DNA of 46,997 nucleotides from a virus. Its lineage: Duplodnaviria > Heunggongvirae > Uroviricota > Caudoviricetes. The stretch lies in IMG/VR virus record IMGVR_UViG_2693429779_000010. One strand, 5' to 3'. The stretch's first letter is position 1, and each line of letters opens with the position of its first letter. The position numbers and the translations under genes were made by a program. Shown here in pieces: positions 1 to 18,191 of this stretch. Under the pieces are notes generated by a model, which did not search any database, was not told the origin of the DNA, and saw only the letters and a list, made by a program, of their open reading frames with translations.

Positions 1-50
1 TCACTTATTTAAGTGATACTGGTTGTCTGGAGATTCAGGGGGCCAGTCTA
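1..50. mobile_element. Terminal ~50 bp of an IS2 copy (terminal inverted repeat); element body lies left of the window
   Basis: 1-50 reads TCACTTATTTAAGTGATACTGGTTGTCTGGAGATTCAGGGGGCCAGTCTA, matching the recalled IS2 end (...GGTTGTCTGGAGATTCAGGGGGCCAGTCTA). Orientation cannot be decided from 50 bp. Confidence 0.55.
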
Positions 51-199
51 CCACCCCTGATGTCAGGTAGGAAAACACCATATGTTTCTGCTCTGTTTTT
101 CCTTAGAAATAGGCATCCTTGCTGGAACAAAGCGAGCAGCTATATTGACTCTATGTTGTGAGTGTGTTGATCCGTTCTGAGTTAATACATTTAAGTTGC

Positions 200-1309
200 T
201 CACTCTGTTTCTGCTATCCATTCCGGGATTTTTGCCTCAAGCTCAAGCTGCGTGGTAAAGCCGCTGTTATCAATGGTGTGCTCGGCTTTTGCAATAATCC
301 AGTCCTGATTATCAATCTCGCTTTTAAATCCTGTTACCGTGCCATGCATTTCGGGGTAGAGTTCTGCACGTCCATGCGCCAGTGTGATGGAGAATGATGC
401 GGCTCCGCGTTGTAGCTGCTGCCACTTTGCCGCCGCTGCACGTCTTGCTGCCTGCTCGTTCTGATAAGTTTTGCGTAACACAAACACGTTGCCTTCCGCA
501 CCTTCCATATAGTCGCCTTCCCGGCTGCTGCTTTTCTCCTTTTTTGGTTTTGACGGTTTGCGGCGTTTCACGCTGACTTTTTTCTTTTTCCCGTAATTAA
601 GATCAAGCCAGTAAGCGCGTACCCCCGTATACGCTTCGCGGTCAGCAATGCGGAACTGATGGCGATCGCCGCTGCTGCGTGTGATGGCGAACGAGGGCAA
701 CGGCTGGCCCTGTGCGTTCACGCCACCACCGGGCATGATGAATAACAGATTACCGCTTTTTACCGTGGTGATTGCGCCCAGCATTTCCGCCATGCGCGTA
801 AGGAAGGACATGTCGCTTTCTTCGGTCTGGTCGGCGTGGTCGATTTCGATATCCATCAGCATTTCGCTGATTTGCGGTTTCAGACCATACCGATGAGCGA
901 TGGCGGATACCACACGCTCAACGGTCACATCATGCCAGGACACCTCACGTTTAACGTTAAATTCAGCCCGAAAATCTGCGCTTCTGGCTGAAACAGTCAG
1001 CCTGTCCGGCGGTCCTTCGTGAGCGATTTCATCAACAATGTAAGTGCCTTTTTCTGTCAGCGGTTCTCCCTTCCAGCCAATGAGAACCGTCAGGCGCGCG
1101 CCCCGTGGCGGTAGCTGCAACTGACCATCCGCATCATCCAGCGTGATGGTGAGCTGGTCCGCCTCAAATCCCCGGTTGTCGGTCAGTGACAGGCTCATCA
1201 GGCGCTCTGCCACGCCTGACAGCGTTTTACCCTCCGCGAGAATATCAAAATCCGGCATTTTCACGGGGTCTGTGCCCTGACTGAGCAATTGCATGGTGGT
1301 GTCGGTCAT
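200..1309 (-). CDS. D: P2 gpD-like tail protein (late control gene D family)
   Basis: ORF 200-1441 translation has gpD-family character. Start moved to internal ATG at 1307-1309, preceded by GGAGG on the minus strand with 6-nt spacing; ~370 aa. Confidence 0.8.
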   Translation of the reverse strand: MTDTTMQLLSQGTDPVKMPDFDILAEGKTLSGVAERLMSLSLTDNRGFEADQLTITLDDADGQLQLPPRGARLTVLIGWKGEPLTEKGTYIVDEIAHEGPPDRLTVSARSADFRAEFNVKREVSWHDVTVERVVSAIAHRYGLKPQISEMLMDIEIDHADQTEESDMSFLTRMAEMLGAITTVKSGNLLFIMPGGGVNAQGQPLPSFAITRSSGDRHQFRIADREAYTGVRAYWLDLNYGKKKKVSVKRRKPSKPKKEKSSSREGDYMEGAEGNVFVLRKTYQNEQAARRAAAAKWQQLQRGAASFSITLAHGRAELYPEMHGTVTGFKSEIDNQDWIIAKAEHTIDNSGFTTQLELEAKIPEWIAETE

Positions 1310-1466
1310 CTGCTCCCTCCCTGTGTGGCATGGTCGCATGTGCGTGCGGAGGGGGTTACTGCTTTTTGTTGTCGCCGTGGCGGGAGAATGGCGCAGGGGT
1401 GAGATTACGCGCGTGGTGGGTGATGATTGTTGCCGAATCATTTAACGGATACAAGGGGTTGAAGCT

Positions 1467-2651
1467 ATGAGTGAAACTCGTTTTCATGGTGCCCGTGTTA
1501 CGGAAAATACCGACCTGGTAACAGCGATTAACGATGTTGATTCCAGCGTTATCGGTATCGTGGCAACGGCGGATGATGCGGACGCGGAGCTGTTCCCGCT
1601 GAACAAGCCCACACTGCTGCCCCGCGTCAATGACGTGCTGGGAAAATGCGGAACAACGGGGACGCTTTATCGTGCGCTTAAGGCCATCGCAGACCAGGTG
1701 AGCACAAAGGTGATCGTCGTTCGCGTGGCTGAACACAAAGAAGAAGACGGAAAAACGCAGGATCAACTGGTTATCGGTGGTTCTGAATCTGACGGCAGCT
1801 ATACGGGGATGTATGCGCTGCTTGTTGCAGAGCAGGATGAAAGCATCGGATACCGTCCGCGTATTCTGGCCGCGCCGGAGCTGGACACGGAGGCGGTGAC
1901 AAAATCCCTGTGCGTGATTGCGGGTAAACTGCGCGCGTTTGTGTATGCCTCATGTCATGACTGTAACACGATGGCTGAGGCAATTACCTACCGCCAGAAA
2001 TTCAACGAACGTGAGGTGATGCTCTTATGGCCGGACTTCATCGCCTACAACCCGAAAAGTGGCAAAAACGAAACGTTCCCCGCGCCTGCCTATGCGTGCG
2101 GCCTTCGTGCGTACATTGACCATGAGCAGGGCTGGCACAAATCGCTGTCCAACGTTCCGGTTAAAAATGTGCTGGGGATGTCCAGGCATGTGTTCTGGTC
2201 GTTGCAGGCCGAAGACAGTGATGCCAACAGCCTCAACAACAAAGAAATCACGACCATTATTCGTCGCAACGGGTTCCGCTTCTGGGGCAACCGCACACCG
2301 GAAACGAACGCCTACATCTTTGAGGTGTATACCCGAACCGCACAGGTGCTGGCTGATTCAATTGCGGAAGCGCAGTTTGAAACCATCGACAGTCCACTGA
2401 CGCCTGCGAACGTGAAGGATGTTATCGGTGCCATCAGGGCAAAACTGGATTCACTGGTTACTGCCGGGAAACTGATTGGGGCGTCGTGCTGGTATGACGT
2501 GGTGGATAACGGCACCACGAATTTACGTCAGGGGCGCGTGCGTATTCGCTACAAATATACGCCTGTTCCCCCGCTGGAAGACATGGAGCTTTACCAGTCG
2601 TTTACTGATGAATTCTTTGGTCCCGCATTTGCGGTGCTGGGAGGTGCCTGA
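1467..2651 (+). CDS. FI: Contractile tail sheath protein (P2 FI homolog)
   Basis: 394 aa; motifs shared with recalled P2 FI (ADDADAE.FPLNKP, LRAF, WPDF, GWHK.LSNV, RRNGFRFWGNRT, YTRTAQV, YKYTPVPPLE). AAGGGG RBS upstream. Confidence 0.9.
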   Translation: MSETRFHGARVTENTDLVTAINDVDSSVIGIVATADDADAELFPLNKPTLLPRVNDVLGKCGTTGTLYRALKAIADQVSTKVIVVRVAEHKEEDGKTQDQLVIGGSESDGSYTGMYALLVAEQDESIGYRPRILAAPELDTEAVTKSLCVIAGKLRAFVYASCHDCNTMAEAITYRQKFNEREVMLLWPDFIAYNPKSGKNETFPAPAYACGLRAYIDHEQGWHKSLSNVPVKNVLGMSRHVFWSLQAEDSDANSLNNKEITTIIRRNGFRFWGNRTPETNAYIFEVYTRTAQVLADSIAEAQFETIDSPLTPANVKDVIGAIRAKLDSLVTAGKLIGASCWYDVVDNGTTNLRQGRVRIRYKYTPVPPLEDMELYQSFTDEFFGPAFAVLGGA

Positions 2652-3163
2652 TGGCTGTACCAAAACATCTTCGCTTTTTTACGCTGTTTGTGGATGGTGA
2701 AAACGAAGTGGGTAAGGTGACGTCCGTCACTCTGCCTAAGCTGACGCGCAAAACCGACAGCTACCGGGGTGGTGGCATGATGGGAGCGGTAAGTATTGAT
2801 CTCGGCCTGGATGACTCCGCGCTTGATGCGAGCTTTGTCATGGGGGGCGCAGTTCGTGAGCTGTTCCTTAAGTATGGCGGCACGATTGACGGTACGCTGC
2901 TGCGTTTTGCGGGTGAATACTACACCGACGCTGAAAGCGACCTGTATGAAGTCGAAATGCGCGGACGTGTGACGGAAATTGATATGGGGGAAGCCAAACA
3001 GGGCGAAGCCACATCACACACTTACGCCATTAAAAACACCTACTACAAGCTGAGTGTTAACGATCGCCCGTTGTGGGAGATTGACCTGCTGAACTTCATT
3101 TACCGGAAGGACGGCAGGGACATTGTGCCCGATCGCATCCGTTCCGCGCTCGGGCTTGGCTGA
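2651..3163 (+). CDS. FII: Tail tube protein (P2 FII homolog)
   Basis: 170 aa, directly follows sheath gene with start overlapping FI stop; size and position match P2 FII. Confidence 0.85.
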   Translation: MAVPKHLRFFTLFVDGENEVGKVTSVTLPKLTRKTDSYRGGGMMGAVSIDLGLDDSALDASFVMGGAVRELFLKYGGTIDGTLLRFAGEYYTDAESDLYEVEMRGRVTEIDMGEAKQGEATSHTYAIKNTYYKLSVNDRPLWEIDLLNFIYRKDGRDIVPDRIRSALGLG

Positions 3164-3217
3164 TAAGTAATATGCAGGCGGCGCAGTGCGTCGCCTCTGA
3201 CTGAAAGGAGTTTCCTG

Positions 3218-3583
3218 ATGAAAGAGACGAAAAACATCGATACCGAAAACACGGTCGTTGCTGACACTGTGAAAGAAACCAGTGAGCGTGGCGTAAAACT
3301 TACCCAACCAATTGAGCGAGGCGGCGAAAAAATCACGTATGTGGAGATCACCGGGGCTATTGAGCAGGCTGGATCTCTGCGAGATTTGTCGCTGTCTGAT
3401 GTGCTGAATTTGAAAGCGGAATCCATGTTTACGCTGCTGTCACGCGTGACATCACCGCGACTGGATGAAGTGACGATCAAAAAAATGGCATCCCGTGACT
3501 TTATTCAGTTATGTGTGGTTGCCGTAAATTTTTTGAGCGGTGCGGACTCTGGCGAGAAGAACGAACAGGCGACGGAAGCCTGA
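3218..3583 (+). CDS. E: Tail assembly chaperone E (zero-frame product)
   Basis: 121-aa ORF between tube and tape-measure genes; contains slippery heptamer T_TTT_TTG at 3529-3535. Confidence 0.75.
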   Translation: MKETKNIDTENTVVADTVKETSERGVKLTQPIERGGEKITYVEITGAIEQAGSLRDLSLSDVLNLKAESMFTLLSRVTSPRLDEVTIKKMASRDFIQLCVVAVNFLSGADSGEKNEQATEA

Positions 3584-3747
3584 TCACGGTTGTGTGCTTT
3601 GAGCACATAGAAGACTTTGTGGCGGATATTGCCGCCATTTTTAACTGGTCGCCCGCCGAAATCTTCATGATGACGCCCGGCGAAGTGGTTAGCTGGCGTG
3701 AGCGGGCGGCACTTCGCAGCGGGAATGCAGACAATGAAGACTCTTGA
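3218..3747 (+). CDS. E': E+E' tail chaperone made by programmed -1 frameshift at 3529-3535
   Basis: The -1 frame is open from the slippery site to 3747 and overlaps the start of T, the conserved P2 E/E' (lambda G/GT-like) arrangement. Confidence 0.65.
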
Positions 3748-6541
3748 TATCCGGGTCGCTTTCAGCGCCGTTGACAGGCTGACCCGGCCTGCCGAAAACG
3801 CCCGCCGCCTGATGGGGCAGTTTGGTGACTCCATCCAGCGAACGCAGGGGGCGATCAAAAATCTCGAGCGTCAGGCGCGTTCATTTGAGCGCGCCCGTGA
3901 CGCTGTCAGTAAAGCGGATGCGGGCATCGTGAAAGCACGACGCCAGCTTAACGCCCTTAATCAGTTACAACGCACGGGTACAGTGCTCAGCGAAAAACAA
4001 CAAAAGCTGATGCAGCAGTTAAGCACCCGGCTTGAACGCCTGAATGAATCGCGCACACGGGAAATTCAGAAAATGCGGGAACTTGGCGGAGAGCTGAAAC
4101 GCCACGGCATTTCCCTGACAGGCAGCGATAACACCATCCAGCAGGCCATCAGACGCACCGGACAATACAACAACCAGCTTGAACGCGAACGGCGGGCGCT
4201 TGCGCGTGTAACGCAGGCGCGTGAGCGGTATTCACGCGCGCAGGAAACAGCGGGAAAACTGAAAACAGGTGGTGCGCTGGCAACAGGTGCGGCGGCAGCG
4301 GGCGGCTATGCTGCCGGGCGTTTTTTGCAGCCCGCTATCGGGTTCGGGAAAGAGATGTCCCGTGTTCAGGCACTGACGCGAATCGATAAAAACAGCCCGC
4401 AGTTTAAGGCGCTGCGTGAGCAGGCGTTAAAACTTGGCTCTGAAACGCAGTTCACCGCAGGCGATGCCGCCAGTGGACAGGCATTTCTTGCAATGGCTGG
4501 TTTCACACCGCAGGCCATTCAGGCTGCGCTTCCCGGCGTGCTGAGCATGGCAACGGCTGGCGGTATGGACCTCGGCGAGACGGCGGATATTGGTTCCAAT
4601 ATCCTGACGCAGTTCGGCCTCTCTGCTGACCAGATGGACCGGGTCGGTGACACACTTACCGCAGCGTTTACCCGTACCAACACTGACCTTCGCGCACTGG
4701 GCGAAACCATGAAATATGCAGGTCCGGTGGCGGGTAAGCTGGGAATATCGCTGGAGCAGGCCGCAGCGATGGCGGGCGTGCTGGCGAAGATGGGTATCAG
4801 GGGGAGTGATGCAGGTACAGCGTTGCGTAAAAGCCTGGCCAATCTGTCATCACCGCCAAAGGCAGCGGCAGAAGCACTGAAAGAGCTGGGGGTGTCAGTT
4901 GCTGACGCCAAAGGCAAAATGCGCCCGATGGAGAATGTGCTGGCCGATCTCTATAAAGCCACCCGCAAATACGGGGAGGTTGACCGGGTATCGTTCTTTA
5001 AGGACATTGCCGGAGAAGAGGCTTTCACATCATTTATGGGCCTCGTTGATGCGGCAGGTGACGGCTTCTTAGCCAAACTGAGAAAAGAACTTGAAGGCGC
5101 GCGCGGTGAGGCAGAACGCACGGCAAAGGTTATGGCCAATAACCTTGATGGCAACCTGAAATCACTCGGCAGTGCATGGGAAGGTCTGCGTATTCGCATC
5201 AGTGATCTGGTTGACGGTCCGCTGCGTTCTGTCACGCAGTGGCTCACGCGGGTTGTCTCAAAGGTGACGGCGCTGGCGCAGGCCCACCCGGCACTGACGC
5301 GCCAGTTACTGATAGCGGGAGGCGCACTGCTGGCGACAACAGCAACGGTTGGTTCGTTGTCTCTGGTTATTGGGGTGCTTCACGGGAAGCTGGCTACGTT
5401 GCGTCTCGGTTTTTCTCTCCTGACCGAATCAATGAATGTTGTCAGGGTTCTGCCTGCATTATGGGGAATGGTGACGGGTTCCGTTTCTTTACTTGGTGGC
5501 GCTATCGGGGCGCTGTTCAGTCCGGTTAGTCTTATCGTGGCTGCGCTTGCCGGAGCTGCCGTTCTTATCTGGAAATACTGGGATCCCATCAGGGCATTTT
5601 TTGCCGGGGTGTTCAGCGGGATTATGGAAAGGCTGACCCCGTTGCGCGAAACCTTTGAACGGTTTGGCCCTGTTTTTGATGTCGTGCGCGATGGGATTAT
5701 TCAGGTCTTTAACTGGTTTAAATCGCTGCTGTCACCGATGGAGTCCAGCAAGGAAACGCTGGATAAATGTGCCAGTGCTGGCGAGATATTCGGTAACGTT
5801 CTTGGCGGTGCGTTACAACTTGTTCTGACACCTGCAAAAATGCTACTGGATACGCTGGCGTGGATACTTGAAAAACTTGGCGTCCTTCCGGATGAAGCGG
5901 AAAGGGCGCGCAAGAAAATCGAAGACGCACAGCGTGCGGCCATTCTTCAGGACAAGGTTGCCTTGCTTCAGGGGGACCTGGCGAAAATCAATCCGCCGAA
6001 GCCTGTGGAAAATGGCAATGGCACCGGAGGTGATAAACCCAAAGACAACAAACCGCTCACAGACAGCAATACCGGGACGCTACGCAGACTCAGCAAAATT
6101 GCTGATAACACAGGTAAGCTGGTTGATGAGACGAAAAAACGCATTGGCCCCGGCGATATTGTCTTTAAGAACCTGCCCCGCGCACTTGCTGTTCGTGGGG
6201 AGTGGCAGGAGCGGAAGATTGCGCAGGTCAGTAAGCCTGCCCCCGCAATTAATATCACACCCGTGGTCCCGGCTCCGCTGCCTCCGGCGCTGGTCCCTGT
6301 TGTTGCGGCCAGCTCCCGCCCGGTGGCGGAGGCCATACGCTCTCCAGTGGCATCAGTTCCTGTAACTTCCCGTAACCGGGAGCCTGTTGCCTCCGGATTT
6401 GGTGGTGAAATTCATGTTCATCTGCATAACGTTGTTACGCAGAATCCCCGCGAACTGGCGAAACTGGTCGGTGAAATGGTCAGGGCAGAAATGGAACGGC
6501 GCGCCCGTGCCGGGCGTGGCAGTTTTTACGATAAAGATTGA
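3734..6541 (+). CDS. T: Tail tape measure protein (P2 gpT homolog)
   Basis: Long ORF (track 3698-6541, GTG at 3698; ATG 3734 preferred because GGGAA lies ~9 nt upstream). Coiled-coil N-terminus, Gly/Ala-rich hydrophobic centre, located after E/E'. Confidence 0.85.
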   Translation: MKTLDIRVAFSAVDRLTRPAENARRLMGQFGDSIQRTQGAIKNLERQARSFERARDAVSKADAGIVKARRQLNALNQLQRTGTVLSEKQQKLMQQLSTRLERLNESRTREIQKMRELGGELKRHGISLTGSDNTIQQAIRRTGQYNNQLERERRALARVTQARERYSRAQETAGKLKTGGALATGAAAAGGYAAGRFLQPAIGFGKEMSRVQALTRIDKNSPQFKALREQALKLGSETQFTAGDAASGQAFLAMAGFTPQAIQAALPGVLSMATAGGMDLGETADIGSNILTQFGLSADQMDRVGDTLTAAFTRTNTDLRALGETMKYAGPVAGKLGISLEQAAAMAGVLAKMGIRGSDAGTALRKSLANLSSPPKAAAEALKELGVSVADAKGKMRPMENVLADLYKATRKYGEVDRVSFFKDIAGEEAFTSFMGLVDAAGDGFLAKLRKELEGARGEAERTAKVMANNLDGNLKSLGSAWEGLRIRISDLVDGPLRSVTQWLTRVVSKVTALAQAHPALTRQLLIAGGALLATTATVGSLSLVIGVLHGKLATLRLGFSLLTESMNVVRVLPALWGMVTGSVSLLGGAIGALFSPVSLIVAALAGAAVLIWKYWDPIRAFFAGVFSGIMERLTPLRETFERFGPVFDVVRDGIIQVFNWFKSLLSPMESSKETLDKCASAGEIFGNVLGGALQLVLTPAKMLLDTLAWILEKLGVLPDEAERARKKIEDAQRAAILQDKVALLQGDLAKINPPKPVENGNGTGGDKPKDNKPLTDSNTGTLRRLSKIADNTGKLVDETKKRIGPGDIVFKNLPRALAVRGEWQERKIAQVSKPAPAINITPVVPAPLPPALVPVVAASSRPVAEAIRSPVASVPVTSRNREPVASGFGGEIHVHLHNVVTQNPRELAKLVGEMVRAEMERRARAGRGSFYDKD

Positions 6542-6547
6542 GGAGTC

Positions 6548-7042
6548 ATGGCCATGATGATGATCTACGGCATGTTTGTTTTTGAGCTGCGTACATTGCC
6601 GCATCAGCAGTTACAGCAAAACAAAAGCTGGCGGCATGTGAAAAATGAACGCGTTAACCGTTCGGCAAGCTGGCAGTATATCGGTGCAGGTGATGAGCGC
6701 ATCGTTCTTTCTGGTGTGCTTTATCCTGAAATTACAGGTGGCGAAGTGTCGCTGTCGCTGCTGACCACGCAGGCGTATACAGGACGACCCTGGCCTCTGA
6801 TTGATGGCGTCGGGCAGATTTACGGCATGTATGTCCTGACCGAAACGAATACGACCCGCTCCGAGTTTGATCGCTACGGTAAGGCGAAAAAGATAGAATT
6901 TTCACTGACTCTTGAACGCTGTGATGAGGATTTGCGGGAGCGCCTGCAATCCTCATCGTTCAGCGATATGCTGTCCGGCTTCAAAGATAAGGTAACATCA
7001 TCCCTTAACAGCGCGGCCAGTTCAGTTAAAGGGTTGTTCTGA
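6548..7042 (+). CDS. U: Tail protein U (P2 gpU homolog)
   Basis: 164-aa ORF immediately after the tape-measure gene; size and position match P2 U. Confidence 0.75.
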   Translation: MAMMMIYGMFVFELRTLPHQQLQQNKSWRHVKNERVNRSASWQYIGAGDERIVLSGVLYPEITGGEVSLSLLTTQAYTGRPWPLIDGVGQIYGMYVLTETNTTRSEFDRYGKAKKIEFSLTLERCDEDLRERLQSSSFSDMLSGFKDKVTSSLNSAASSVKGLF

Positions 7043-7050
7043 TTTAACAC

Positions 7051-7088
7051 AAAAACCGCTAATGGTCAGATTAGCGGTTATTTTGTTT
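7051..7088. terminator. Bidirectional rho-independent terminator between convergent U and invertase genes
   Basis: AAAAA-ACCGCTAAT-ggtcag-ATTAGCGGT-TATTTTGTTT: 9-10 bp stem with A-tract on one side and T-tract on the other; pin stop codon lies in the stem. Confidence 0.6.
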
Positions 7089-7665
7089 CCTGACTCTTCT
7101 CTATTGTTCCGATTGATTCTCCTGCGGGGTGGTAACGATAAATCGTCGATATACCAATGCCGTAAATTATTGCCAGTTGTTTTCTGTCGTGCCCGTTTTT
7201 GATCAGCCTTGCTATTTGCTCATGCTGTTCTTTTGTCAGCTTCGGTCGACGTCCGCCTGTGCGCCCCCGTGCGCGTGCTGCCGCCAGTCCGGCCAGTGTA
7301 CGTTCAACAATTAATTCACGTTCCATTTCAGCCAGGGCACCCATCACGTGGAAGAAAAAACGCCCCATTGGAGAAGATGTATCTATGCTGTCGGTCAGAC
7401 TGCGAAAATTAATTCCTCGCTCCCGTAGTTCCCCGACGAGAGAAATCAGATGTTTCATGCTTCGCCCGAGGCGATCCAGTTTCCAGACAACCAGCGTGTC
7501 ACCTTTTTGAAGGCGCTTTAAAGCGCGTTTTAATCCCGGTCGGTCTGTCTTTGTCCCGCTTAATTTATCTTCAAATATTTGTTCACATCCTGCACAAACA
7601 AGAGCGTTTCGTTGCAGGTCTGTATTCTGGTCATTTGTTGATACCCTTACATAGCCAATCAGCAC
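7078..7665 (-). CDS. pin: Serine DNA invertase (Gin/Pin/Cin/Hin family)
   Basis: Translation ...LIGYVRVSTNDQNTDLQRNALVCAGCEQIFEDKLSGTKTDRPGLKRALKRLQKGDTLVVWKLDRLGRSMKHL... is near-identical to recalled Gin/Pin N-terminus. Likely GTG start at 7663-7665 (GGGAGA 6 nt upstream); track ORF extends to a TTG at 7683. Confidence 0.9.
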   Translation of the reverse strand: MLIGYVRVSTNDQNTDLQRNALVCAGCEQIFEDKLSGTKTDRPGLKRALKRLQKGDTLVVWKLDRLGRSMKHLISLVGELRERGINFRSLTDSIDTSSPMGRFFFHVMGALAEMERELIVERTLAGLAAARARGRTGGRRPKLTKEQHEQIARLIKNGHDRKQLAIIYGIGISTIYRYHPAGESIGTIEKSQETK

Positions 7666-7719
7666 GCTGAATCTCCCGTCCAAAAGCGCAAATCATGCCA
7701 TGCAGGCCGGAAACGGCCA

Positions 7720-7745
7720 TTATCTAAAACCTCGGTTTACAGGAA
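7720..7745 (+). other. pix/gix-type 26-bp crossover site 1, adjacent to the invertase
   Basis: TTATCTAAAACC-TC-GGTTTACAGGAA; one mismatch to recalled Mu gix (TTATCCAAAACCTCGGTTTACAGGAA); 12-bp arms around a 2-bp core. Confidence 0.8.
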
Positions 7746-7769
7746 ACGGTAAACAAGGCTGGTAACGCC

Positions 7770-8756
7770 GTGCAAAAAAATGGCGATACGTTGTCCGGTG
7801 GACTTACTTTTGAAAACGACTCAATCCTTGCCTGGATTCGAAATACTGACTGGGCAAAGATTGGGTTTAAAAATAATTCGGATGCAGACACCGATTCCTA
7901 CATGTGGTTTGAAACAGGCAACAACGGCAATGAATATTTCAAATGGAGACACCGCATCATTGGCACCCGGCCTAAAGACCTGATGAATCTTAAATGGAAT
8001 GCTTTGTCTGTTCTTGTTGAAGCCCTTTTCAGCAGTGAAGTGAAAATATCGACAGTCAATGCACTGAGGATATTTAATTCATCTTTTGGTGCCATTTTTC
8101 GTCGTTCTGAAGAATGCCTGCATATCATCCCTACACGAGAGAATGAAGGGGAAAATGGTAATATAGGGCCACTACGCCCCTTTACGCTTAATCTCAGAAC
8201 TGGCCGGATAAGCATGGGGCATGGTCTTGATGTTACAGGGGATATATTTGCAAACCGTTTTGCAATTAACAGTAGTACCGGCATGTGGATTCATATGCGT
8301 GACCAGAATGTTATTTTGGGACGTAATGCGGTATCCACTGATGGTGCTCAGGCTTTGCTCCGTCAGGACCATGCCGACCGCAAATTTATGATTGGCGGTC
8401 TGGGAAATAAGCAATTTGGCATCTACATGATTAATAACTCAAGGACAGCCAATGGCACCGATGGTCAGGCGTACATGGATAATAACGGGAACTGGCTTTG
8501 CGGCTCGCAAGTTATTCCCGGCAACTATGGCAATTTTGATTCCAGATATGTGAAAGATGTTCGACTTGGTTCACAGCAATATTATGGAGTGAACAACTGG
8601 CAAACATGGAATTTTCAGTGCCCGTCAGGCTATGTACTGACGGGGATTAACGTACAGGATACCGGAAAAAACTCTGCCGATAATATTGCAGGCGTTCATT
8701 ACAGGCCAGTGCAAAAGTATATAAATGGCACTTGGTATAATGTGGCGAGTATTTAA
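7770..8756 (+). CDS. Tail-fibre variable C-terminal cassette A (receptor-binding tip), currently not joined to a constant region
   Basis: Begins just after pix-1; ...[36 protein letters not shown]... and C-terminal ...[12 protein letters not shown] resemble the recalled P2 H distal part. In-frame stop inside pix-1 upstream means it needs inversion to be expressed. Confidence 0.75.
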
Positions 8757-8757
8757 T

Positions 8758-9285
8758 ATGATGCACTTAAAGAACATAAAAGCAGGTAATGCTAAAACAG
8801 TGGAGCAGTATGAGTTAACAAAGAAGCACGGAGTCATCTGGCTTTACTCTGAGGACGGAAAAAACTGGTATGAGGAAGTGAAGAACTTTCAGCCAGACAC
8901 AATAAAGATTGTTTACGATGCAAATAATATTATTGTCGCCATCACCAAAGATGCCTCCACGCTTAACCCTGAAGGTTATAGCGTCGTTGAGGTTCCTGAT
9001 ATTACAGCTAATCGTCGTGCTGATGATTCCGGTAAGTGGATGTTTAAGGACGGAGCTGTGGTTAAACGGATTTATACGGCTGACGAACAGCAACAACAGG
9101 CCGAATCACAAAAGGCCGCATTGCTTTCCGAAGCTGAATCAGTCATCCAGCCGCTGGAACGCGCTGTCAGGCTGAATATGGCGACGGACGAGGAACGCAC
9201 ACGACTGGAAGCATGGGAACGCTACAGTGTTCTGGTCAGCCGTGTGGATACGGCAAAGCCAGAATGGCCACAAAAGCCTGAGTAA
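8758..9285 (+). CDS. Tail fibre assembly protein (Tfa/gpG-like), cassette A
   Basis: [11 protein letters not shown]... start at 8758 (ATG overlapping TAATATG after the fibre gene); ~175 aa; conserved Tfa C-terminus shared with the cassette C copy. Confidence 0.8.
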
Positions 9286-9290
9286 AAATT

Positions 9291-9310
9291 AAGGCCCGAT
9301 ATCGGGCCTT
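9291..9310. terminator. Perfect 20-bp palindrome between convergent tfa genes
   Basis: AAGGCCCGAT|ATCGGGCCTT; identical copy at 13355-13374. Confidence 0.55.
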
Positions 9311-9313
9311 GTT

Positions 9314-9847
9314 TCATTCTGGTTGTTCGGGAAACGTTACTGGCAGGCTGGAGGTGTCTGTGGATTCGACCTTCTGCGCATAGAGCATCCACTCGGTTAA
9401 TTTTTGTTTATTCTCGTCGGAAATAATGCCCAGCCGTAGCTGTGAGTCCCATAGCTGGGTTTTATCCCTGACGAGCTGTAGCAGGCTTTGCTTTTCATTT
9501 TCCGCTTGTTGCCTCTGCTCTTCCCCGGTATAAGTTCGCTTTATCACTACGCCATCTTTGAACATCCATTTACCTGAAATATCAGCCCGGCGATTTGCTG
9601 TAATATCAGGAACCTCAACGACGCTTGCGCCTTCCGGATTAATTGCTGAAACATCCTTTTCAATACAAATAATAACGCCGTTGTGGTCATAGACCATTTT
9701 CAACGTATCAGGCTGAAAGTTCTTTTGTTCCTCATACCAGTTTTTCCCATCCTCTGTATAAAGCCATTTGATGTTAAATTGTTTCGTTAGCTGGTATTGC
9801 TCTTTTGTTTCAGGATTACCAGCAGAAATGTTTTTTAAGTGCATCAT
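9314..9847 (-). CDS. Tail fibre assembly protein, cassette B (copy 1)
   Basis: 177 aa, MMHLKNISAGNPETKEQ...; identical copy at 13378-13911. Confidence 0.8.
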   Translation of the reverse strand: MMHLKNISAGNPETKEQYQLTKQFNIKWLYTEDGKNWYEEQKNFQPDTLKMVYDHNGVIICIEKDVSAINPEGASVVEVPDITANRRADISGKWMFKDGVVIKRTYTGEEQRQQAENEKQSLLQLVRDKTQLWDSQLRLGIISDENKQKLTEWMLYAQKVESTDTSSLPVTFPEQPE

Positions 9848-9849
9848 CG

Positions 9850-10116
9850 TTAAATACTCCCCGCGTTATACCACGTCCCATTAATGCAATACTGAATTGG
9901 CCTTGCCTGAGTTGTATCAATTAGTTCATCTCTGTTTGAGTTAACGGAACCGGTAACAACATAACCTGACCTGTCAGACCATCCGGGACCATTCCATGTC
10001 TGAACAGATAACAGACCACCAAGGCGAATACCTGTAATAAACCTTGAGTTACATTCTGCCTGCGTATATGCACCAACATCTCCCGCAGAGGGTTTGCGGG
10101 TTGTGGTGTAAAACTC
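9850..10116 (-). pseudogene. 3' fragment of tail-fibre variable domain B, cut off from its 5' part by IS600 (copy 1)
   Basis: Encodes ...EFYTTTRKPSAGDVGAYTQAECNS...INGTWYNAGSI; the matching upstream codons (...GFEADWSE) lie at 18192 on the other side of IS600 copy 3. Confidence 0.75.
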
Positions 10117-11258
10117 TGAGGTGTACTGGCAATAGCGGACACTACCATTTGTTCTTTTTTTAAGCAGCCATCTGATGATATTTTTCCCTGAAGGCTGCCG
10201 GGGAGATATTCCCCAGACGAGAGTGACGACGCTGACGATTGTAGAAAATCTCAATGTATTCCCGTATTACTGAGATGGCTTCATCCCGGTTATTAAAACG
10301 ATAGTGGCTCAGGCTCTCATTTTTCAGCGTTCCCCAGAAGCTTTCCATCGGAGCGTTGTCGTAACAGTTACCTTTACGCGACATTGATGTTTTCAGACCA
10401 GACTGCTCCTGTATGACCCGGTAATCGTATGCGCAGTACTGTGAACCTCGATCAGAGTGGTGGATTAGCCCGGCAGGTGGGCGCTGGCTCCTGAGCGCCA
10501 TAAACAGGGCTTTACCTGTCAGCTCTTTTGTCATGCGCTCTCCCATGGCGTAGCCGACAATTTCGCACGTATAAACATCTTTGATGCCAGCGAGGTACAA
10601 CCATCCCTCCTGTGTGGCAACATACGTCAGGTCCGCCACCCAGACCTGATTTGGTGCTGTAGGAGCGAACGTCTGGTTCAGCAGATTTGGCGCAACTGGC
10701 AGATTGTGGTTCGAGTTCGTAGTCGCTCTGAACTTGCGTTTCTGCTTACAGCGTAGCCTTAGCTCCTTACGAAGACGTGCCAGTCGGTCACGACCAACGA
10801 TGATGCCATTCTCTGCCAGCTCCGTCTGGAGCCGCCGGGTTCCATATGTTTCGCGAGTGCGGATATGTGCCACCTTAATCTCCAGTTTTAGCCGCTCATC
10901 ACTTTGTTTTCTGTCTGAGGGTTCATGCTGTACCCAGTTGTAATAACCGCTCCTGGATACACCAAATACCTGACACATCGCTTCAATGGGAAATTGTTGT
11001 CGCCATTGTTCGATTAACGCGTATTTTTCAGCGACTCCTGTGCAAAATACGCTGTTGCTTTTTTTAATATATCTCGCTCAAGGCGAGCTTCATTTAACGC
11101 CTTACGCAGTTGCAGAATTTCAGATTCCAGTTCAGCCACCGTGCGGGAACCAGGAGTACCGAGCCCTTTTCTGGCGGCGGTAACCCATTGTCCTAAAGTG
11201 CCTTCAGGAAGAGATAATCGGGAAGCGCCTTCACTGATCGAAAGTTGATTTTCAAGAT
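10117..11258 (-). mobile_element. IS600 (IS3 family) copy 1, truncated at the orfA end
   Basis: Starts with TGAGGTGTACTGGCAATAGCGGACACT inverted repeat at 10117; identical to copies 2 and 3 up to ~11258 (...GATTTTCAAGA), then diverges into unrelated sequence. Confidence 0.85.
10160..10978 (-). CDS. IS600 transposase OrfB (DDE integrase domain)
   Basis: 272-aa ORF identical in all three copies; IS3-family OrfB. Confidence 0.9.
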   Translation of the reverse strand: MCQVFGVSRSGYYNWVQHEPSDRKQSDERLKLEIKVAHIRTRETYGTRRLQTELAENGIIVGRDRLARLRKELRLRCKQKRKFRATTNSNHNLPVAPNLLNQTFAPTAPNQVWVADLTYVATQEGWLYLAGIKDVYTCEIVGYAMGERMTKELTGKALFMALRSQRPPAGLIHHSDRGSQYCAYDYRVIQEQSGLKTSMSRKGNCYDNAPMESFWGTLKNESLSHYRFNNRDEAISVIREYIEIFYNRQRRHSRLGNISPAAFREKYHQMAA

Positions 11259-11645
11259 GGAACTCTATACGGAGCCACAATTCTTGGCGATGGAGTTGTG
11301 CACAATAGCTTCGGTCAAAAACTGATGCGCATTTACAATCAGAAAGGCATCTTTTCAAACACAAAAGATTCCGAAGAAGGCTTAACACATATACTCTCAG
11401 AGCATTTCGAGAATGTTAAAACCAGGGTTCAAGGTACTGTAGTAATGTTTTCCGCTTCAGGGAAAAAATAGCATCCAACCGCAGCACGTTCTTGCTTAAG
11501 ACGTGCTGCGGCATAATCCCAATGATTACTCCCTGACAGGGTTCGTAGGCCACTCAATATCAGGTGCAGTTGATGTATCAACACGGTTCAGCAACACCCG
11601 ATACTTTTTCTAGGCTTCCACCACCAGCACGACAAGATGCCGCAT
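11259..11645. other. ~390-bp segment of unknown origin joining truncated IS600 to the decayed invertase copy
   Basis: No match to IS600, the invertase region or fibre genes; contains hairpin GCAGCACGT-n11-ACGTGCTGC at ~11421-11449. Confidence 0.4.
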
Positions 11646-11870
11646 ACAGTGACCCAGTCAGTCCAGTTTTCAGACAACCAGTGCGTCACCTTTTTGAAGG
11701 CGCTTTAAAGCACGTTTTAATCCAGGTCGGCCTGTCCTTGTTCCGCTTAATTTATCTTCAAATATTTGTTCATATCCTGCACAAACAAGAGCGTTTCGTT
11801 GCAGGTCTGTATTCTGGTCATTTGTTGATACCCTTACATAGCCAATCAGCACGCTGAATCTCCCGTCCAA
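11646..11870 (-). pseudogene. Decayed duplicate of the invertase 5' end (pin')
   Basis: ~95% DNA identity to 7470-7700; TGG to TGA change gives ...GDALVV* where pin has ...GDTLVVWKLD; homology ends at ~11646. Confidence 0.8.
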
Positions 11871-11906
11871 AAGCGCAAATCATGCCATGCAGGCCGGAAA
11901 CGGCCA

Positions 11907-11932
11907 TTATCTAAAACCTCGGTTTACAGGAA
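11907..11932 (+). other. pix-type crossover site 2 (identical to site 1)
   Basis: TTATCTAAAACCTCGGTTTACAGGAA downstream of pin'. Confidence 0.8.
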
Positions 11933-11977
11933 ACGGTAAACAAGGCTGGTAACGCCGTTCAGCGTTCCGGCGATAAA

Positions 11978-12820
11978 ATGACCGGAGAACTGAAAATTGG
12001 CACGGTGAATGCGCTGCGAATTTTCAATGATACCTTCGGTCTAATTTTCCGTCGTTCAGAAGATTTTCTTCATTTCATTCCGACGGCTGAAGGACAAGGC
12101 GAAAACGGTAATATCGGCCCATTAAGGCCATTCGCTATAAATCTGAGAACAGGTGCTATATCTGTCAGCCACGGGGCCAAAATTAAAGGAGGTCTAGCTA
12201 TTGGAGCTACTGATAACGCACTGGGTGAAAACTCCATTGTTCTGGGAGATAACGACACCGGATTTAGGCAAGATGGAGATGGTATTATTAGCTTCTATTC
12301 AAATGGTTCGCGCATCGGACATATTGATGAGTTAGGATTACATCTTTATAAAGATATTGAATCTAATGGCAGCAATTTTAGATTAAAAAGTAATTACCGC
12401 CACCACATTACATTCGCCAACGAAGACGGAAGAATTCGTATGTTTTTGTGGAAAGATAACGGTGGTGATGGTGTTCATATTAATAACGGTTCAGATGGTG
12501 GTGGTGATTTCATTTTTAAAACAGATGGGGGATTTGCGCTGGGAAGTGGTGCGCAAGTTGCGTCTAGTGGCGATATTTATGGTTCAGTGTGGGAAAACAA
12601 CTGGTTAAGCACATGGCTGCATAATCATGTCGTTCGGGATATTCGTCTTGGCAGCATTGAATATAAAAACGTATGGCGCGACTACGGCTTTGGCGATGCG
12701 TCAGGTTATGTTTTAACAGCCGCAATTAACAGCAATGCGGATGATATTGTCGACACTGTTGCCAGAAGGCCAATTCAGAAATTGATTGGGGGAATATGGT
12801 ACAACGTGGGGAGTGTTTAA
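11978..12820 (+). CDS. Tail-fibre variable C-terminal cassette C
   Basis: Open in frame from pix-2 (...[26 protein letters not shown]...), ends ...[13 protein letters not shown]; related to cassette A but lacks its ~90-aa N-proximal segment. Confidence 0.75.
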
Positions 12821-12821
12821 G

Positions 12822-13349
12822 ATGATGCACCTGAAAAATATTAAGGCCGGGAATCCGAAAACACCGGAACAATACCAGCTAACTAAAAAAGCGGGCGTGG
12901 TATGGCTCTTTTGCGAAGATGGCAAAAACTGGTATGAGGAACAAAAGAATTTTCAGCCAGACACCATAAAAATTGCTTACGATGAGAACAACATCATCGT
13001 TGCTGTCAGTAAAGACGTTTCAACTATTAATCCTGAAGGGCTAAGCATAGTTGAAGTTCCTGATATTACGGCAAATCGTCACGCAGACAATAACGGAAAA
13101 TGGATGTTTCTGGATGGTAAAGTAGTAAAGAGGGAATATACAGAACAGGAACTGCAACAACAGGCCGAATCACAAAAGGCCGCATTGCTTTCCGAAGCTG
13201 AATCAGTCATCCAGCCGCTGGAACGCGCTGTCAGGCTGAATATGGCGACGGACGAGGAACGCACACGACTGGAAGCATGGGAACGCTACAGTGTTCTGGT
13301 CAGCCGTGTGGATACGGCAAAGCCAGAATGGCCACAAAAGCCTGAGTAA
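12822..13349 (+). CDS. Tail fibre assembly protein, cassette C
   Basis: [17 protein letters not shown]...; C-terminal ~65 aa identical to tfaA. Confidence 0.8.
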
Positions 13350-13354
13350 AAATT

Positions 13355-13374
13355 AAGGCCCGATATCGGGCCTT
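13355..13374. terminator. Second copy of the 20-bp palindrome
   Basis: Identical to 9291-9310. Confidence 0.5.
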
Positions 13375-13377
13375 GTT

Positions 13378-13911
13378 TCATTCTGGTTGTTCGGGAAACG
13401 TTACTGGCAGGCTGGAGGTGTCTGTGGATTCGACCTTCTGCGCATAGAGCATCCACTCGGTTAATTTTTGTTTATTCTCGTCGGAAATAATGCCCAGCCG
13501 TAGCTGTGAGTCCCATAGCTGGGTTTTATCCCTGACGAGCTGTAGCAGGCTTTGCTTTTCATTTTCCGCTTGTTGCCTCTGCTCTTCCCCGGTATAAGTT
13601 CGCTTTATCACTACGCCATCTTTGAACATCCATTTACCTGAAATATCAGCCCGGCGATTTGCTGTAATATCAGGAACCTCAACGACGCTTGCGCCTTCCG
13701 GATTAATTGCTGAAACATCCTTTTCAATACAAATAATAACGCCGTTGTGGTCATAGACCATTTTCAACGTATCAGGCTGAAAGTTCTTTTGTTCCTCATA
13801 CCAGTTTTTCCCATCCTCTGTATAAAGCCATTTGATGTTAAATTGTTTCGTTAGCTGGTATTGCTCTTTTGTTTCAGGATTACCAGCAGAAATGTTTTTT
13901 AAGTGCATCAT
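13378..13911 (-). CDS. Tail fibre assembly protein, cassette B (copy 2)
   Basis: Identical to 9314-9847. Confidence 0.8.
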   Translation of the reverse strand: MMHLKNISAGNPETKEQYQLTKQFNIKWLYTEDGKNWYEEQKNFQPDTLKMVYDHNGVIICIEKDVSAINPEGASVVEVPDITANRRADISGKWMFKDGVVIKRTYTGEEQRQQAENEKQSLLQLVRDKTQLWDSQLRLGIISDENKQKLTEWMLYAQKVESTDTSSLPVTFPEQPE

Positions 13912-13913
13912 CG

Positions 13914-14180
13914 TTAAATACTCCCCGCGTTATACCACGTCCCATTAATGCAATACTGAATTGGCCTTGCCTGAGTTGTATCAATTAGTTCATCTCTGTT
14001 TGAGTTAACGGAACCGGTAACAACATAACCTGACCTGTCAGACCATCCGGGACCATTCCATGTCTGAACAGATAACAGACCACCAAGGCGAATACCTGTA
14101 ATAAACCTTGAGTTACATTCTGCCTGCGTATATGCACCAACATCTCCCGCAGAGGGTTTGCGGGTTGTGGTGTAAAACTC
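13914..14180 (-). pseudogene. 3' fragment of fibre variable domain B (copy 2), abutting IS600 copy 2
   Basis: Identical to 9850-10116. Confidence 0.75.
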
Positions 14181-14223
14181 TGAGGTGTACTGGCAATAGC
14201 GGACACTACCATTTGTTCTTTTT

Positions 14224-15042
14224 TTAAGCAGCCATCTGATGATATTTTTCCCTGAAGGCTGCCGGGGAGATATTCCCCAGACGAGAGTGACGACGCTGAC
14301 GATTGTAGAAAATCTCAATGTATTCCCGTATTACTGAGATGGCTTCATCCCGGTTATTAAAACGATAGTGGCTCAGGCTCTCATTTTTCAGCGTTCCCCA
14401 GAAGCTTTCCATCGGAGCGTTGTCGTAACAGTTACCTTTACGCGACATTGATGTTTTCAGACCAGACTGCTCCTGTATGACCCGGTAATCGTATGCGCAG
14501 TACTGTGAACCTCGATCAGAGTGGTGGATTAGCCCGGCAGGTGGGCGCTGGCTCCTGAGCGCCATAAACAGGGCTTTACCTGTCAGCTCTTTTGTCATGC
14601 GCTCTCCCATGGCGTAGCCGACAATTTCGCACGTATAAACATCTTTGATGCCAGCGAGGTACAACCATCCCTCCTGTGTGGCAACATACGTCAGGTCCGC
14701 CACCCAGACCTGATTTGGTGCTGTAGGAGCGAACGTCTGGTTCAGCAGATTTGGCGCAACTGGCAGATTGTGGTTCGAGTTCGTAGTCGCTCTGAACTTG
14801 CGTTTCTGCTTACAGCGTAGCCTTAGCTCCTTACGAAGACGTGCCAGTCGGTCACGACCAACGATGATGCCATTCTCTGCCAGCTCCGTCTGGAGCCGCC
14901 GGGTTCCATATGTTTCGCGAGTGCGGATATGTGCCACCTTAATCTCCAGTTTTAGCCGCTCATCACTTTGTTTTCTGTCTGAGGGTTCATGCTGTACCCA
15001 GTTGTAATAACCGCTCCTGGATACACCAAATACCTGACACAT
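14224..15042 (-). CDS. IS600 transposase OrfB
   Basis: 272 aa, identical to other copies. Confidence 0.9.
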   Translation of the reverse strand: MCQVFGVSRSGYYNWVQHEPSDRKQSDERLKLEIKVAHIRTRETYGTRRLQTELAENGIIVGRDRLARLRKELRLRCKQKRKFRATTNSNHNLPVAPNLLNQTFAPTAPNQVWVADLTYVATQEGWLYLAGIKDVYTCEIVGYAMGERMTKELTGKALFMALRSQRPPAGLIHHSDRGSQYCAYDYRVIQEQSGLKTSMSRKGNCYDNAPMESFWGTLKNESLSHYRFNNRDEAISVIREYIEIFYNRQRRHSRLGNISPAAFREKYHQMAA

Positions 15043-15077
15043 CGCTTCAATGGGAAATTGTTGTCGCCATTGTTCGA

Positions 15078-15380
15078 TTAACGCGTATTTTTCAGCGACT
15101 CCTGTGCAAAATACGCTGTTGCTTTTTTTAATATATCTCGCTCAAGGCGAGCTTCATTTAACGCCTTACGCAGTTGCAGAATTTCAGATTCCAGTTCAGC
15201 CACCGTGCGGGAACCAGGAGTACCGAGCCCTTTTCTGGCGGCGGTAACCCATTGTCCTAAAGTGCCTTCAGGAAGAGATAATCGGGAAGCGCCTTCACTG
15301 ATCGAAAGTTGATTTTCAAGAACCGTTCTGACAGCTTCGGCTTTGAACTCTTTAGAGTAACGTTGGGTTTTTCTGCTCAT
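15078..15380 (-). CDS. IS600 OrfA (HTH transposase N-terminal subunit)
   Basis: 100 aa MSRKTQRYSKEFKAEAVRTV...; TTAAAAAAAGC slippery run near the orfA/orfB overlap. Confidence 0.9.
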   Translation of the reverse strand: MSRKTQRYSKEFKAEAVRTVLENQLSISEGASRLSLPEGTLGQWVTAARKGLGTPGSRTVAELESEILQLRKALNEARLERDILKKATAYFAQESLKNTR

Positions 15381-15444
15381 TATTAGCTCCTTCTGATGCC
15401 ATTCTATTTCAGGAAGGAGTGTCCGTTAAACTCAGGCTACCTCA

Positions 15445-15937
15445 AGTCTGTGGATTCAACCTTCTGCGCATAGAGCATCCACTCGGTTAATTTTTGTTTA
15501 TTCTCATCGGAAATGATGCCCAGCTGTAGCTGAGAGTCCCACAGCTGGGTTTTATCCCTGACGAGCTGCAGCAGGCTCTGCTTTTCATTTTCCGCTTGTT
15601 GCCTTTGCTCTTCCTCGGTATAAGTTCGCTTTATCACCGCACCATCTTTGAACATCCAGTTGCCCGAAATATCAGCCCGGCGATTTGCTGTAATATCAGG
15701 CAACTCAACGACACTTAAACCTTCTGGATTAATTGCTGATACATCCTTGTCTATAGCAATAATTATTCCCTCAACTGTGTAAGCCAGTTTTATTGTATCC
15801 TCCTGAAAGTTTTTTAATTCCTCATGCCAATTTTTTCCATCTTCGGACCATAACCAGATAACATCAAAATTCTTTGTTAGCTGGTATTGTTCAACGGTTT
15901 TTGGATTACCTGCGACAATGTTTTTTAAATGCTGCAT
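15445..15937 (-). CDS. Tail fibre assembly protein, cassette D, C-terminus truncated by IS600 copy 2
   Basis: [15 protein letters not shown]...KVESTD then runs into the IS end (LR*); the last ~11 codons seen in tfaB are missing. Confidence 0.75.
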
Positions 15938-15939
15938 GA

Positions 15940-16927: not shown

Positions 16928-16970
16928 TGAGGTGTACTGGCAATAGCGGACACTACCATTTGTTCTTTTT

Positions 16971-17789: not shown

Positions 17790-17824
17790 CGCTTCAATGG
17801 GAAATTGTTGTCGCCATTGTTCGA

Positions 17825-18127: not shown

Positions 18128-18191
18128 TATTAGCTCCTTCTGATGCCATTCTATTTCAGGAAGGAGTGTCCGTTAAACTCAGGCTACCTCA

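Follow-up and report, generated by a model that had tools for sequence, protein, structure and literature searches.

P2, 186, Fels-2, and phiCTX carry their late tail genes in a canonical order, FI-FII-E-T-U-D on one strand with V-W-J-I-H. P88 and phiSM, which are far more similar to the locus studied here, are viable phages (PMC5285337, PMC6456863). In the searchable literature on P88, phiSM, xenorhabdicin, Xuanwuvirus, and Senquatrovirus, we found no explicit description of an inversion of these genes.

Here, we analyzed the late region of a 46,997-nucleotide stretch of viral DNA (the window), in which FI-U lies on the plus strand and D and V-H lie on the minus strand. We are confident that this is the late region of a P88-like prophage (Xuanwuvirus, Peduoviridae) with a single ancestral and fixed inversion of FI-U, with a gap between D and FI that most likely functions as a bidirectional late promoter, and with a terminator shared between U and the invertase gene.

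Results

Gene content and strand order of the late region

Pfam searches and tblastn with P2 proteins yielded the same gene identities, strands, and coordinates for D, FI-U, and the invertase gene as an earlier note on this DNA (Table 1). Homologs of FI, FII, T, U, and gpD are all present, with 32 to 48% identity to the P2 proteins, and together represent a contractile-tail module of the Peduoviridae type; gpD is 98 to 99% identical to gpD of P88 and phiSM. A P2-type slippery site, T TTT TTG at 3529-3535, identifies E and E' as a -1 frameshift pair, and GpE' (3592-3747) matches Pfam Phage_P2_GpE. The T reading frame opens at GTG 3698, and alignment to the P88 annotation suggests ATG 3734 as the likely start. 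The invertase DNA is 92 to 96% identical to the gin regions of Mu, D108, and SfMu.

Table 1. Features of the late region, with positions in the window
Feature	Position	Strand	Basis or remark
gpD (baseplate hub/late control D)	200-1309	minus	Pfam Phage_GPD, E=3.7e-17
D|FI divergent control region	1310-1466		157 bp; proposed bidirectional Ogr-type late promoter
-10-like hexamer GACCAT for D	1330-1335	minus	mirror of FI hexamer; predicted start near 1323
Ogr/B-type activator dyad TGT-N12-AGA	1370-1387		centre 1378.5; sequence match
-10-like hexamer GATGAT for FI operon	1422-1427	plus	predicted transcription start near 1434
FI tail sheath	1467-2651	plus	Pfam Phage_sheath_1, Gp18_domIII_N, sheath_1C
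FII tail tube	2651-3163	plus	Pfam Phage_tube, E=1.9e-46
E tail assembly chaperone	3218-3583	plus	weak Pfam match, E-type chaperone
E+E' tail assembly chaperone	3218-3747	plus	-1 frameshift into frame ending at 3747
T tape measure protein	3698-6541	plus	Pfam PhageMin_Tail, E=1.4e-57
gpU, final gene of inverted operon	6548-7042	plus	Pfam Phage_P2_GpU, E=7.7e-39
Bidirectional intrinsic terminator	7054-7079		10-bp stem, A-tract before, T-tract after; detected on both strands
Gin/Pin-type serine DNA invertase	7078-7683	minus	Pfam Resolvase + HTH_7
gix-like crossover site nearest operon	7720-7745	plus	site search

According to tblastn, Q and P as well as FI, FII, E, T, and U lie on the plus strand, and O, N, M, L, X, R, S, V, W, J, I, H, and D on the minus strand, with transcription of D leading away from the sheath operon. 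FI-U is the only part that is flipped in comparison with P2 and 186, and it is delimited by the D|FI gap and by a gap of 35 bp (7043-7077) between U and the invertase gene. The comparison of gene order bore out that FI-U is inverted with respect to the synteny of P2, 186, and Fels-2, and that D is detached from the operon that it normally ends.

The inverted order is native to a branch of the P2 family

P88, phiSM, P884B11, and further phage records are collinear with the window at 94 to 96% identity, and the same collinear layout occurs in 1,103 of 5,426 complete E. coli genomes. Bases 1-8000 aligned to P88 in one collinear piece, with 96.5% identity over 95% of these bases, so that by P88 identity and gene order this part belongs to Xuanwuvirus; the fiber region differs. 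Among the best-scoring 80 gpD loci, all 51 genome loci with at least 61% gpD identity, distributed over about 25 genera of Enterobacterales, were inverted, and all 29 loci with gpD identity of 54% or less were canonical. The inverted order was also present in SEN5 (Senquatrovirus) and Kp4871-3 (Reginaelenavirus).

Thus, the inverted layout is the normal, fixed, and ancient order of a P2-family branch including P88, phiSM, SEN5, and their relatives, and, being shared by a whole branch, the layout in the window is ordinary; it results neither from rearrangement nor from misassembly. The earlier note described the inversion correctly but implied an anomaly, which it considered untenable if related invertase-carrying P2-like phages had the same arrangement; since related P2-like phages, including carriers of an invertase, natively share it, the anomaly is not supported.

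Inversion or replacement of the sheath-tube-tape-measure module

Inverted loci were monophyletic in neighbor-joining trees of D, FI, FII, and U rooted with phiCTX, all without support values; the J tree was unrooted (the phiCTX locus has no J). Identity to P2 stays at a uniform level on either side of the breakpoints, with 45% for FI (tblastn), 42% for FII, 47% for U, 48% over 370 amino acids for D, 46% for V, and 54% for J. These observations point to a single ancient inversion and argue against a foreign module.

Alternatively, the sheath-tube-tape-measure module might have been acquired horizontally in the opposite orientation from a different contractile-tail lineage, in which case the ancestral genes were replaced rather than inverted. 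Such an event would be in keeping with the mosaic nature of phage genomes and with the divergence of T, which at 32% identity to P2 exceeds that of its neighbors. However, low tape-measure identity is also found between canonical phages, FI, FII, and U are as P2-like as their neighbors D, V, and J (42 to 48% versus 46 to 54%), the four rooted trees recover the same inverted clade, and the pF dyad and the FI ATG are spaced as in P2 (82.5 to 88.5 nt). We therefore regard a replacement as improbable.

We favor a scenario in which a segment comprising the pF promoter and FI-FII-E/E'-T-U was inverted once, in the phage ancestral to a large enterobacterial branch of the P2 family, and was then fixed. 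One breakpoint would have been located between the tail-fiber module, with the invertase gene where present, and pF, and the other where U meets D. Together with the operon, the activator site of pF would have traveled to its present place 70 nt upstream of D.

The adjoining invertase does not switch FI-U

Sites of 26 bp resembling gix were detected in the window at 7720, 11907, 16849, and 18873 only. None was located at 1310-1466 or 7043-7077, and all four are in the fiber region, past the invertase gene. The site at 7720 is already beyond the invertase gene, which leaves the FI-U block outside every invertible segment. An inverted-repeat search of bases 1-8200 returned only pairs at chance level and the terminator hairpin, without meaningful repeats flanking FI-U. 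Both searches agree with the absence of recombination sites and inverted repeats at the junctions reported in the earlier note. Queried with a synthetic P2-type U|D junction, 1,412 E. coli genomes gave matches, and the two halves were joined in none of them. Hence, FI-U has neither 26-bp sites at its borders nor alternative orientations in near-identical genomes, as would characterize a programmed invertible segment. The FI-U segment does not switch.

The fiber region itself (7.7 to 22 kb) looks rearranged; it is rich in repeats and in insertion sequence (IS) copies, and no complete E. coli genome matches it over its full length.

The position of the invertase gene directly next to FI-U and the active-looking gix-like sites in the window might suggest that FI-U is flipped by the Gin/Pin-type invertase and represents one of two states. 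Considering the location of these sites, the lack of flanking repeats, and the single orientation among the E. coli genomes, we judge this very improbable. Moreover, the invertase is absent from most of the 51 inverted loci and from most phages with the inverted order (e.g., SEN5), and Fels-2 possesses an invertase but has the canonical order. The native inverted order in relatives, together with the order in Fels-2, shows that orientation tracks the phage lineage and is independent of the invertase, which belongs to the tail-fiber module and not to the flipped segment.

That the order arose by misassembly, or by a recent rearrangement of a P2-ordered prophage in this strain, as might be suspected from the state of the neighboring fiber region, is refuted to near certainty by single collinear alignments of about 96% identity that span each junction in independently sequenced phages and in the 1,103 E. 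coli genomes, and by the same order in about 25 other genera.

The D|FI gap as a candidate bidirectional late promoter

Promoters activated by Ogr/Delta(B) were defined by a dyad whose center precedes the transcription start by about 55 nt and by a -10-like hexamer, with no -35 element. An exact search for TGT-N12-ACA produced 2 matches in the window versus 12 expected by chance, none of them in a late intergenic region. A 9-mer common to the D|FI and O|P gaps led to the variant TGT-N12-AGA: the D|FI gap shares TTTTGTTGT-N12-AGAA with the divergent O|P region at 30504-30528. Sites of P2 and 186 read TGTTGT..N..CCA/ACA, and the right half-site of the dyad in the window is AGA instead of ACA or CCA. 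The dyad is centered at a distance of 88.5 nt from the start codon of FI and 69.5 nt from that of D. The architecture of the gap is conserved across the inverted clade. In 52 of 56 inverted-type loci, TGT-N12-A[CG]A is situated 74.5 to 88.5 nt upstream of FI, with fixed half-sites and variable spacers, and in most loci the D ATG follows on the other side at about 68 to 80 nt.

On the FI side, the distance from the dyad center to the start of a NANNAT hexamer is exactly 44 nt in 47 of the 50 unique sequences from the clade, which are related and not independent samples; canonical pF regions have this spacing in 17 of 18 cases. On the D side, the motif is present at 44 nt in 38 of the same 50 related sequences and at 45 nt in 3 more, compared with 2 of 18 on the noncoding side of canonical pF. 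The predicted leader of D is only about 14 nt long. The D-side hexamer was also considered as an alternative start codon of D and rejected, its ATG being in frame with D in a minority of loci. Open reading frames annotated in the gap of P88 (gp50) and SEN5 (SEN5_27) were treated as spurious, since no frame is open across the gap in 13 aligned relatives.

Judged by sequence, the gap qualifies as an Ogr/Delta(B)-activated promoter with a TGT-N12-ACA-type dyad and a -10-like hexamer, and the mirror-image hexamers together with the dyad suggest that it is most likely a bidirectional late promoter. An Ogr-type site, being a dyad, can serve both directions. The dyad probably binds an Ogr homolog and activates both promoters, the one on the D side being predicted from its geometry. 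In the window, neither tblastn with relaxed thresholds nor a scan for the Cys motif detected an ogr homolog. Homology to P88 ends at base 192, which accounts for the absence of ogr from the window, and close relatives encode the gene downstream of D, at a place beyond the left end of the window. The gap would then be organized like P2 pO/pP, driving FI-U rightward and D, with ogr downstream of it in relatives, leftward. At the other end, the FI-U transcript would terminate at the predicted terminator common to the convergent invertase gene (folding energies of -16.1 and -15.7 kcal/mol, with z of about -4 on both strands).

Discussion

It is tempting to speculate that the inversion was tolerated because the Ogr site carried along with the operon is dyad symmetric and could at once activate the orphaned D gene, and that a mirror -10 element was fixed afterwards, converting a unidirectional pF into a bidirectional pF/pD. 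We lean slightly toward this explanation, in which the layout would be a clade-defining trait shared by at least three ICTV genera (Xuanwuvirus, Senquatrovirus, and Reginaelenavirus). The conserved mirror geometry predicts a bidirectional Ogr-dependent promoter, which, if true, would constitute a tidy regulatory rewiring after operon inversion and is testable in the viable phages P88 and phiSM.

In practical terms, the finding concerns annotation and quality control: since this layout marks the P88/SEN4/3LV2017 branch of Peduoviridae, a P2-like prophage whose sheath operon opposes D should be suspected neither of misassembly nor of having been flipped by an invertase. As a rare genomic change, the layout is convenient for the classification of these phages and of related tailocin loci in Xenorhabdus, Photorhabdus, Pectobacterium, and Pantoea.

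Escherichia phage P88, Xuanwuvirus P884B11, and Citrobacter phage phiSM are identical to the window in order and strands, with D on the minus strand, FI-FII-E-E'-T-U on the plus strand, and the invertase gene, a fiber cassette, and H to O following, of which the invertase gene and H to O are on the minus strand. They share 94 to 96.5% DNA identity over bases 189-7760, the same 157-bp D|FI gap, and the same dyad. In contrast, the window has about 8 kb more sequence in its fiber region, which is degenerate and contains IS copies as well as a lambdoid stf/lom segment, and the sequence downstream of D differs, with ogr not directly following D. SEN5/SEN4 of Salmonella and Kp4871-3 of Klebsiella likewise have an inverted FI-U divergent from D and a dyad at the same distance, but their gpD identity is only 63 to 70%; in SEN5, which has no invertase, the fiber assembly gene G meets U directly.

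Like the window, Mu with its G segment and Gin, P1 with Cin, and e14 with Pin have a serine invertase and 26-bp gix-like sites. Unlike in these systems, the elements in the window govern only the fiber cassettes at 7.7 to 18.9 kb, and FI-U is free of sites and never varies in orientation.

P2, 186, Fels-2, and phiCTX share with the window the gene families, the E/E' frameshift site, and an Ogr-type pF about 80 nt upstream of FI with the -10-like hexamer 44 nt from the dyad center. They differ in that FI-FII-E-T-U-D forms one operon on the H strand, with U overlapping D, and in that the far side of pF has no -10-like element. In P2 pO/pP and 186 pV/p12, a single dyad is positioned between divergent late genes, and in the P2 annotation transcription starts about 55 nt to either side of it. 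The D|FI region has the same mirror geometry, and its predicted promoter pair would serve FI and D, a pairing that is absent from P2.

Inversion of the FI-U block in the window and its relatives

ORF listing, Pfam searches and tblastn with P2 proteins bear out the claim of the earlier note that the genes from sheath FI to gpU are inverted relative to P2 synteny. FI-U is the sole flipped block, and all other blocks have the canonical relative orientation seen in the annotated genomes of P2 and 186. The operon read from the late promoter pF ends in P2 with D, which overlaps U, whereas in the window D is divergent from FI and needs a promoter of its own.

Features of the late region and its junctions in the window
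Feature	Position	Strand	Basis or remark
gpD	200-1309	-	ORF listing, Pfam, tblastn with P2 proteins
D|FI junction	1310-1466		157 bp
-10-like GACCAT	1335-1330	-	D side
Dyad	1370-1387		in D|FI gap
-10-like GATGAT	1422-1427	+	FI side
Sheath FI	1467-2651	+	ORF listing, Pfam, tblastn with P2 proteins
Tube FII	2651-3163	+	ORF listing, Pfam, tblastn with P2 proteins
E	3218-3583	+	ORF listing, Pfam, tblastn with P2 proteins
E' extension	frame end at 3747	+	entered via P2-type slippery heptamer T TTT TTG, 3529-3535
Tape measure T	3698/3734-6541	+	ORF listing, Pfam, tblastn with P2 proteins
gpU	6548-7042	+	ORF listing, Pfam, tblastn with P2 proteins
U|invertase junction	7043-7077		35 bp
Terminator hairpin	7054-7079	both	10-bp stem; A-tract before, T-tract after
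Gin/Pin-type serine invertase	7078-7683	-	ORF listing, Pfam
gix-like 26-bp sites	7720, 11907, 16849, 18873	+, +, -, -	all in fibre region past invertase gene
H', I, J, W, V, S, R, X, L, M, N, O (remaining late region)		-	tblastn with P2 proteins
P, Q		+	tblastn with P2 proteins
A		-	tblastn with P2 proteins
C, int		+	tblastn with P2 proteins

The suspicion that this arrangement is anomalous did not hold, so that the earlier interpretation stands only in part. Window 189-7760 aligns collinearly with Escherichia phage P88 in a single alignment (96.5% identity), and with Xuanwuvirus P884B11, Citrobacter phage phiSM, and several other E. coli phages at ~95% identity; the annotated strands of these phages are those of the window, with D(-), sheath to U(+), and invertase(-). 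The same order is shared by 1,103 of 5,426 complete E. coli genomes, each with 80% or more of bases 1-8000 at a single collinear location. Because P88 is inducible and lytic and phiSM shows spontaneous activity (PMC5285337, PMC6456863), the inverted order is compatible with functional virions. In the phiSM record OR565851 (Shae_phiSM), product labels at 2294-4745 look displaced, with the gpD gene labeled "ogr/Delta-like zinc finger" and the sheath gene "late control gene D protein." Two phage-plasmid survey papers mention P88, and its annotation places a partition protein and a plasmid segregation protein of ParM-like type between the replication and portal genes (25684-26959); a 319-aa ORF occupies the equivalent position in the window (35218-36177, -).

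Extent and origin of the inverted order

To follow the order further, gpD alignments were scanned in one genome per bacterial species, and D, U, T, FII, FI, invertase, I, J, V, and ogr were placed in the best 80 loci. Among these, all 51 loci with a gpD at least 61% identical to that of the window had FI-FII-T-U opposite D and FI divergent from D, and all 29 loci at or below 54% identity had the canonical FI..U-D order, related sequences in such clade counts being non-independent samples. The inverted loci span ~25 genera, including Salmonella, Serratia, Erwinia, Pantoea, Pectobacterium, Brenneria, Klebsiella, Kosakonia, Enterobacter, Citrobacter, Edwardsiella, Xenorhabdus, Photorhabdus, Providencia, Morganella, Hafnia, Rouxiella, and Yersinia. 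In the phage collection, gpD identity reached at least 60% in 48 of the 526 records having a gpD match. SEN5 (Senquatrovirus) and Klebsiella phage Kp4871-3 (Reginaelenavirus) share the inversion of the window, whereas Fels-2, despite carrying an invertase, and the Pseudomonas outgroup phiCTX have the canonical order.

In phiCTX-rooted neighbour-joining trees without support values, built for D, FI, FII, and U, the inverted loci each time formed one clade of 52 to 55 taxa. The simplest reading is that one ancient inversion took place in this branch's ancestor, P2 order being ancestral. FI-U does not look like an imported foreign tail module: besides the recovery of one clade in every tree, identity to P2 is flat over the breakpoints, FI (45%), FII (42%), and U (47%) being level with the flanking D (48%), V (46%), and J (54%).

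FI-U is not a switch

The FI-U segment is not a switch. No site comparable to the gix-like sites of the fibre region was found at either FI-U border, nor any other inverted repeat flanking the block, which agrees with the earlier note, where no obvious inverted repeats or pix-like sites were seen at the two junctions. A synthetic 800-nt query in which the U end adjoins the D start in the P2 manner matched 1,412 E. coli genomes, none of which showed the P2-type U|D adjacency. The invertase is absent from most inverted-clade loci, as from SEN5; where present in either clade, it ends the fibre module, reads in the same direction as H, and is therefore part of that module. The hairpin following U, which scores as a terminator on both strands (~-16 kcal/mol, z ~-4), is common to the end of the FI-U operon and the convergent invertase gene.

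The tail-fibre region (7720-22077) is an enlarged, degenerate chimera. After a truncated P2-type H (21202-22077, 291 aa) come a frameshifted Ail/Lom fragment (20864-21190) and a lambdoid fibre of Stf type (18189-20771, PF08400). The fibre shufflon contains an IS3-family insertion sequence with an rve integrase-core OrfB in three copies (10160-10978, 14224-15042, and 16971-17789), each with an upstream ORF of 100 to 124 aa. Block 9314-10978 recurs at 13378-15042; this duplication could be a real IS-mediated event or an assembly error in an invertible region rich in repeats. Among complete E. coli genomes, none had 80% or more of 7000-22100 at a single site, and the best-matching sequences were lom-stf-tfa-pin regions of e14/lambdoid type.

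A putative divergent promoter between D and FI

The D|FI gap and the divergent O|P gap have the 9-mer TTTTGTTGT in common, and both contain TTGTTGT-N12-AGAA (1367-1388 and 30507-30528); in P2 and 186, the activator sites are annotated as TGTTGT...CCA or ACA. The geometry of the D|FI dyad is conserved across the clade. TGT-N12-A[CG]A was centred 74.5 to 88.5 nt upstream of the FI ATG in 52 of 56 inverted-clade loci, compared with 79.5 nt by scan and ~82 nt by annotated coordinates for P2 pF, and in most of these 52 the first in-frame D ATG lay ~68 to 80 nt beyond the dyad centre on the other side. The half-sites are fixed and the 12-nt spacers vary widely. Of 50 unique clade sequences, 47 had a NANNAT -10-like hexamer starting exactly 44 nt from the dyad centre on the FI side and 38 had one on the D side (3 more at 45 nt), whereas canonical pF controls had it in 17 of 18 on the FI side and only 2 of 18 on the other. 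Predicted transcription starts at ~1434 (FI side) and ~1323 (D side) would place the dyad at ~-55 for both and leave D a short leader of ~14 nt. From these sequence features, we infer that Ogr binds and activates at this gap, which would then act as a bidirectional Ogr-dependent pF/pD promoter.

CGCGCG-rich blocks lie directly upstream of the -10-like hexamers (1337-1350 and 1406-1415), the D-side block being kept across genera as CA(C/T)GCGCGCGCG; in the O|P gap, a comparable block (30551-30560) precedes TAATCT. There, the P ATG lies 73.5 nt downstream of the TTTTGTTGT-N12-AGAA element (30504-30528). On the far side, the geometry is at odds with an O start at 30470, and alignment with P2 gpO suggests a start further downstream, near 30431-30437.

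No ogr gene was found within the window. Homology to P88 ends at base 192, just past the D stop codon, and P88 carries an ogr homologue directly downstream of D (1181-1339), left unannotated in its record. E. coli O111 RM9322 matches window bases 49-420 at 100% and has a PIN-domain gene (500 aa), possibly defence cargo, between D and ogr (our locus L090, 1089-3426). Given the position of ogr downstream of D in both, the activator gene of the window is presumably located beyond its left edge. Further out in RM9322 are hok/gef and ihfA. A Cys-rich zinc-ribbon-like motif (CPHC...CEKC) is encoded by a small ORF (~33840-33991, -) that lies downstream of the portal gene and gave no BLAST match as an Ogr homologue.

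Comparison with known systems

No explicit discussion of the inversion or of a divergent D/FI promoter was found in the literature searched; describing them makes small additions and no new kind of system. The arrangement is already known, being visible in deposited annotations, and is the standard layout of a well-populated group, Xuanwuvirus and the branch with Senquatrovirus and Reginaelenavirus. The geometry of the D|FI gap is like that of P2 pO/pP and 186 pV/p12, where a single annotated activator site serves two divergent late promoters.
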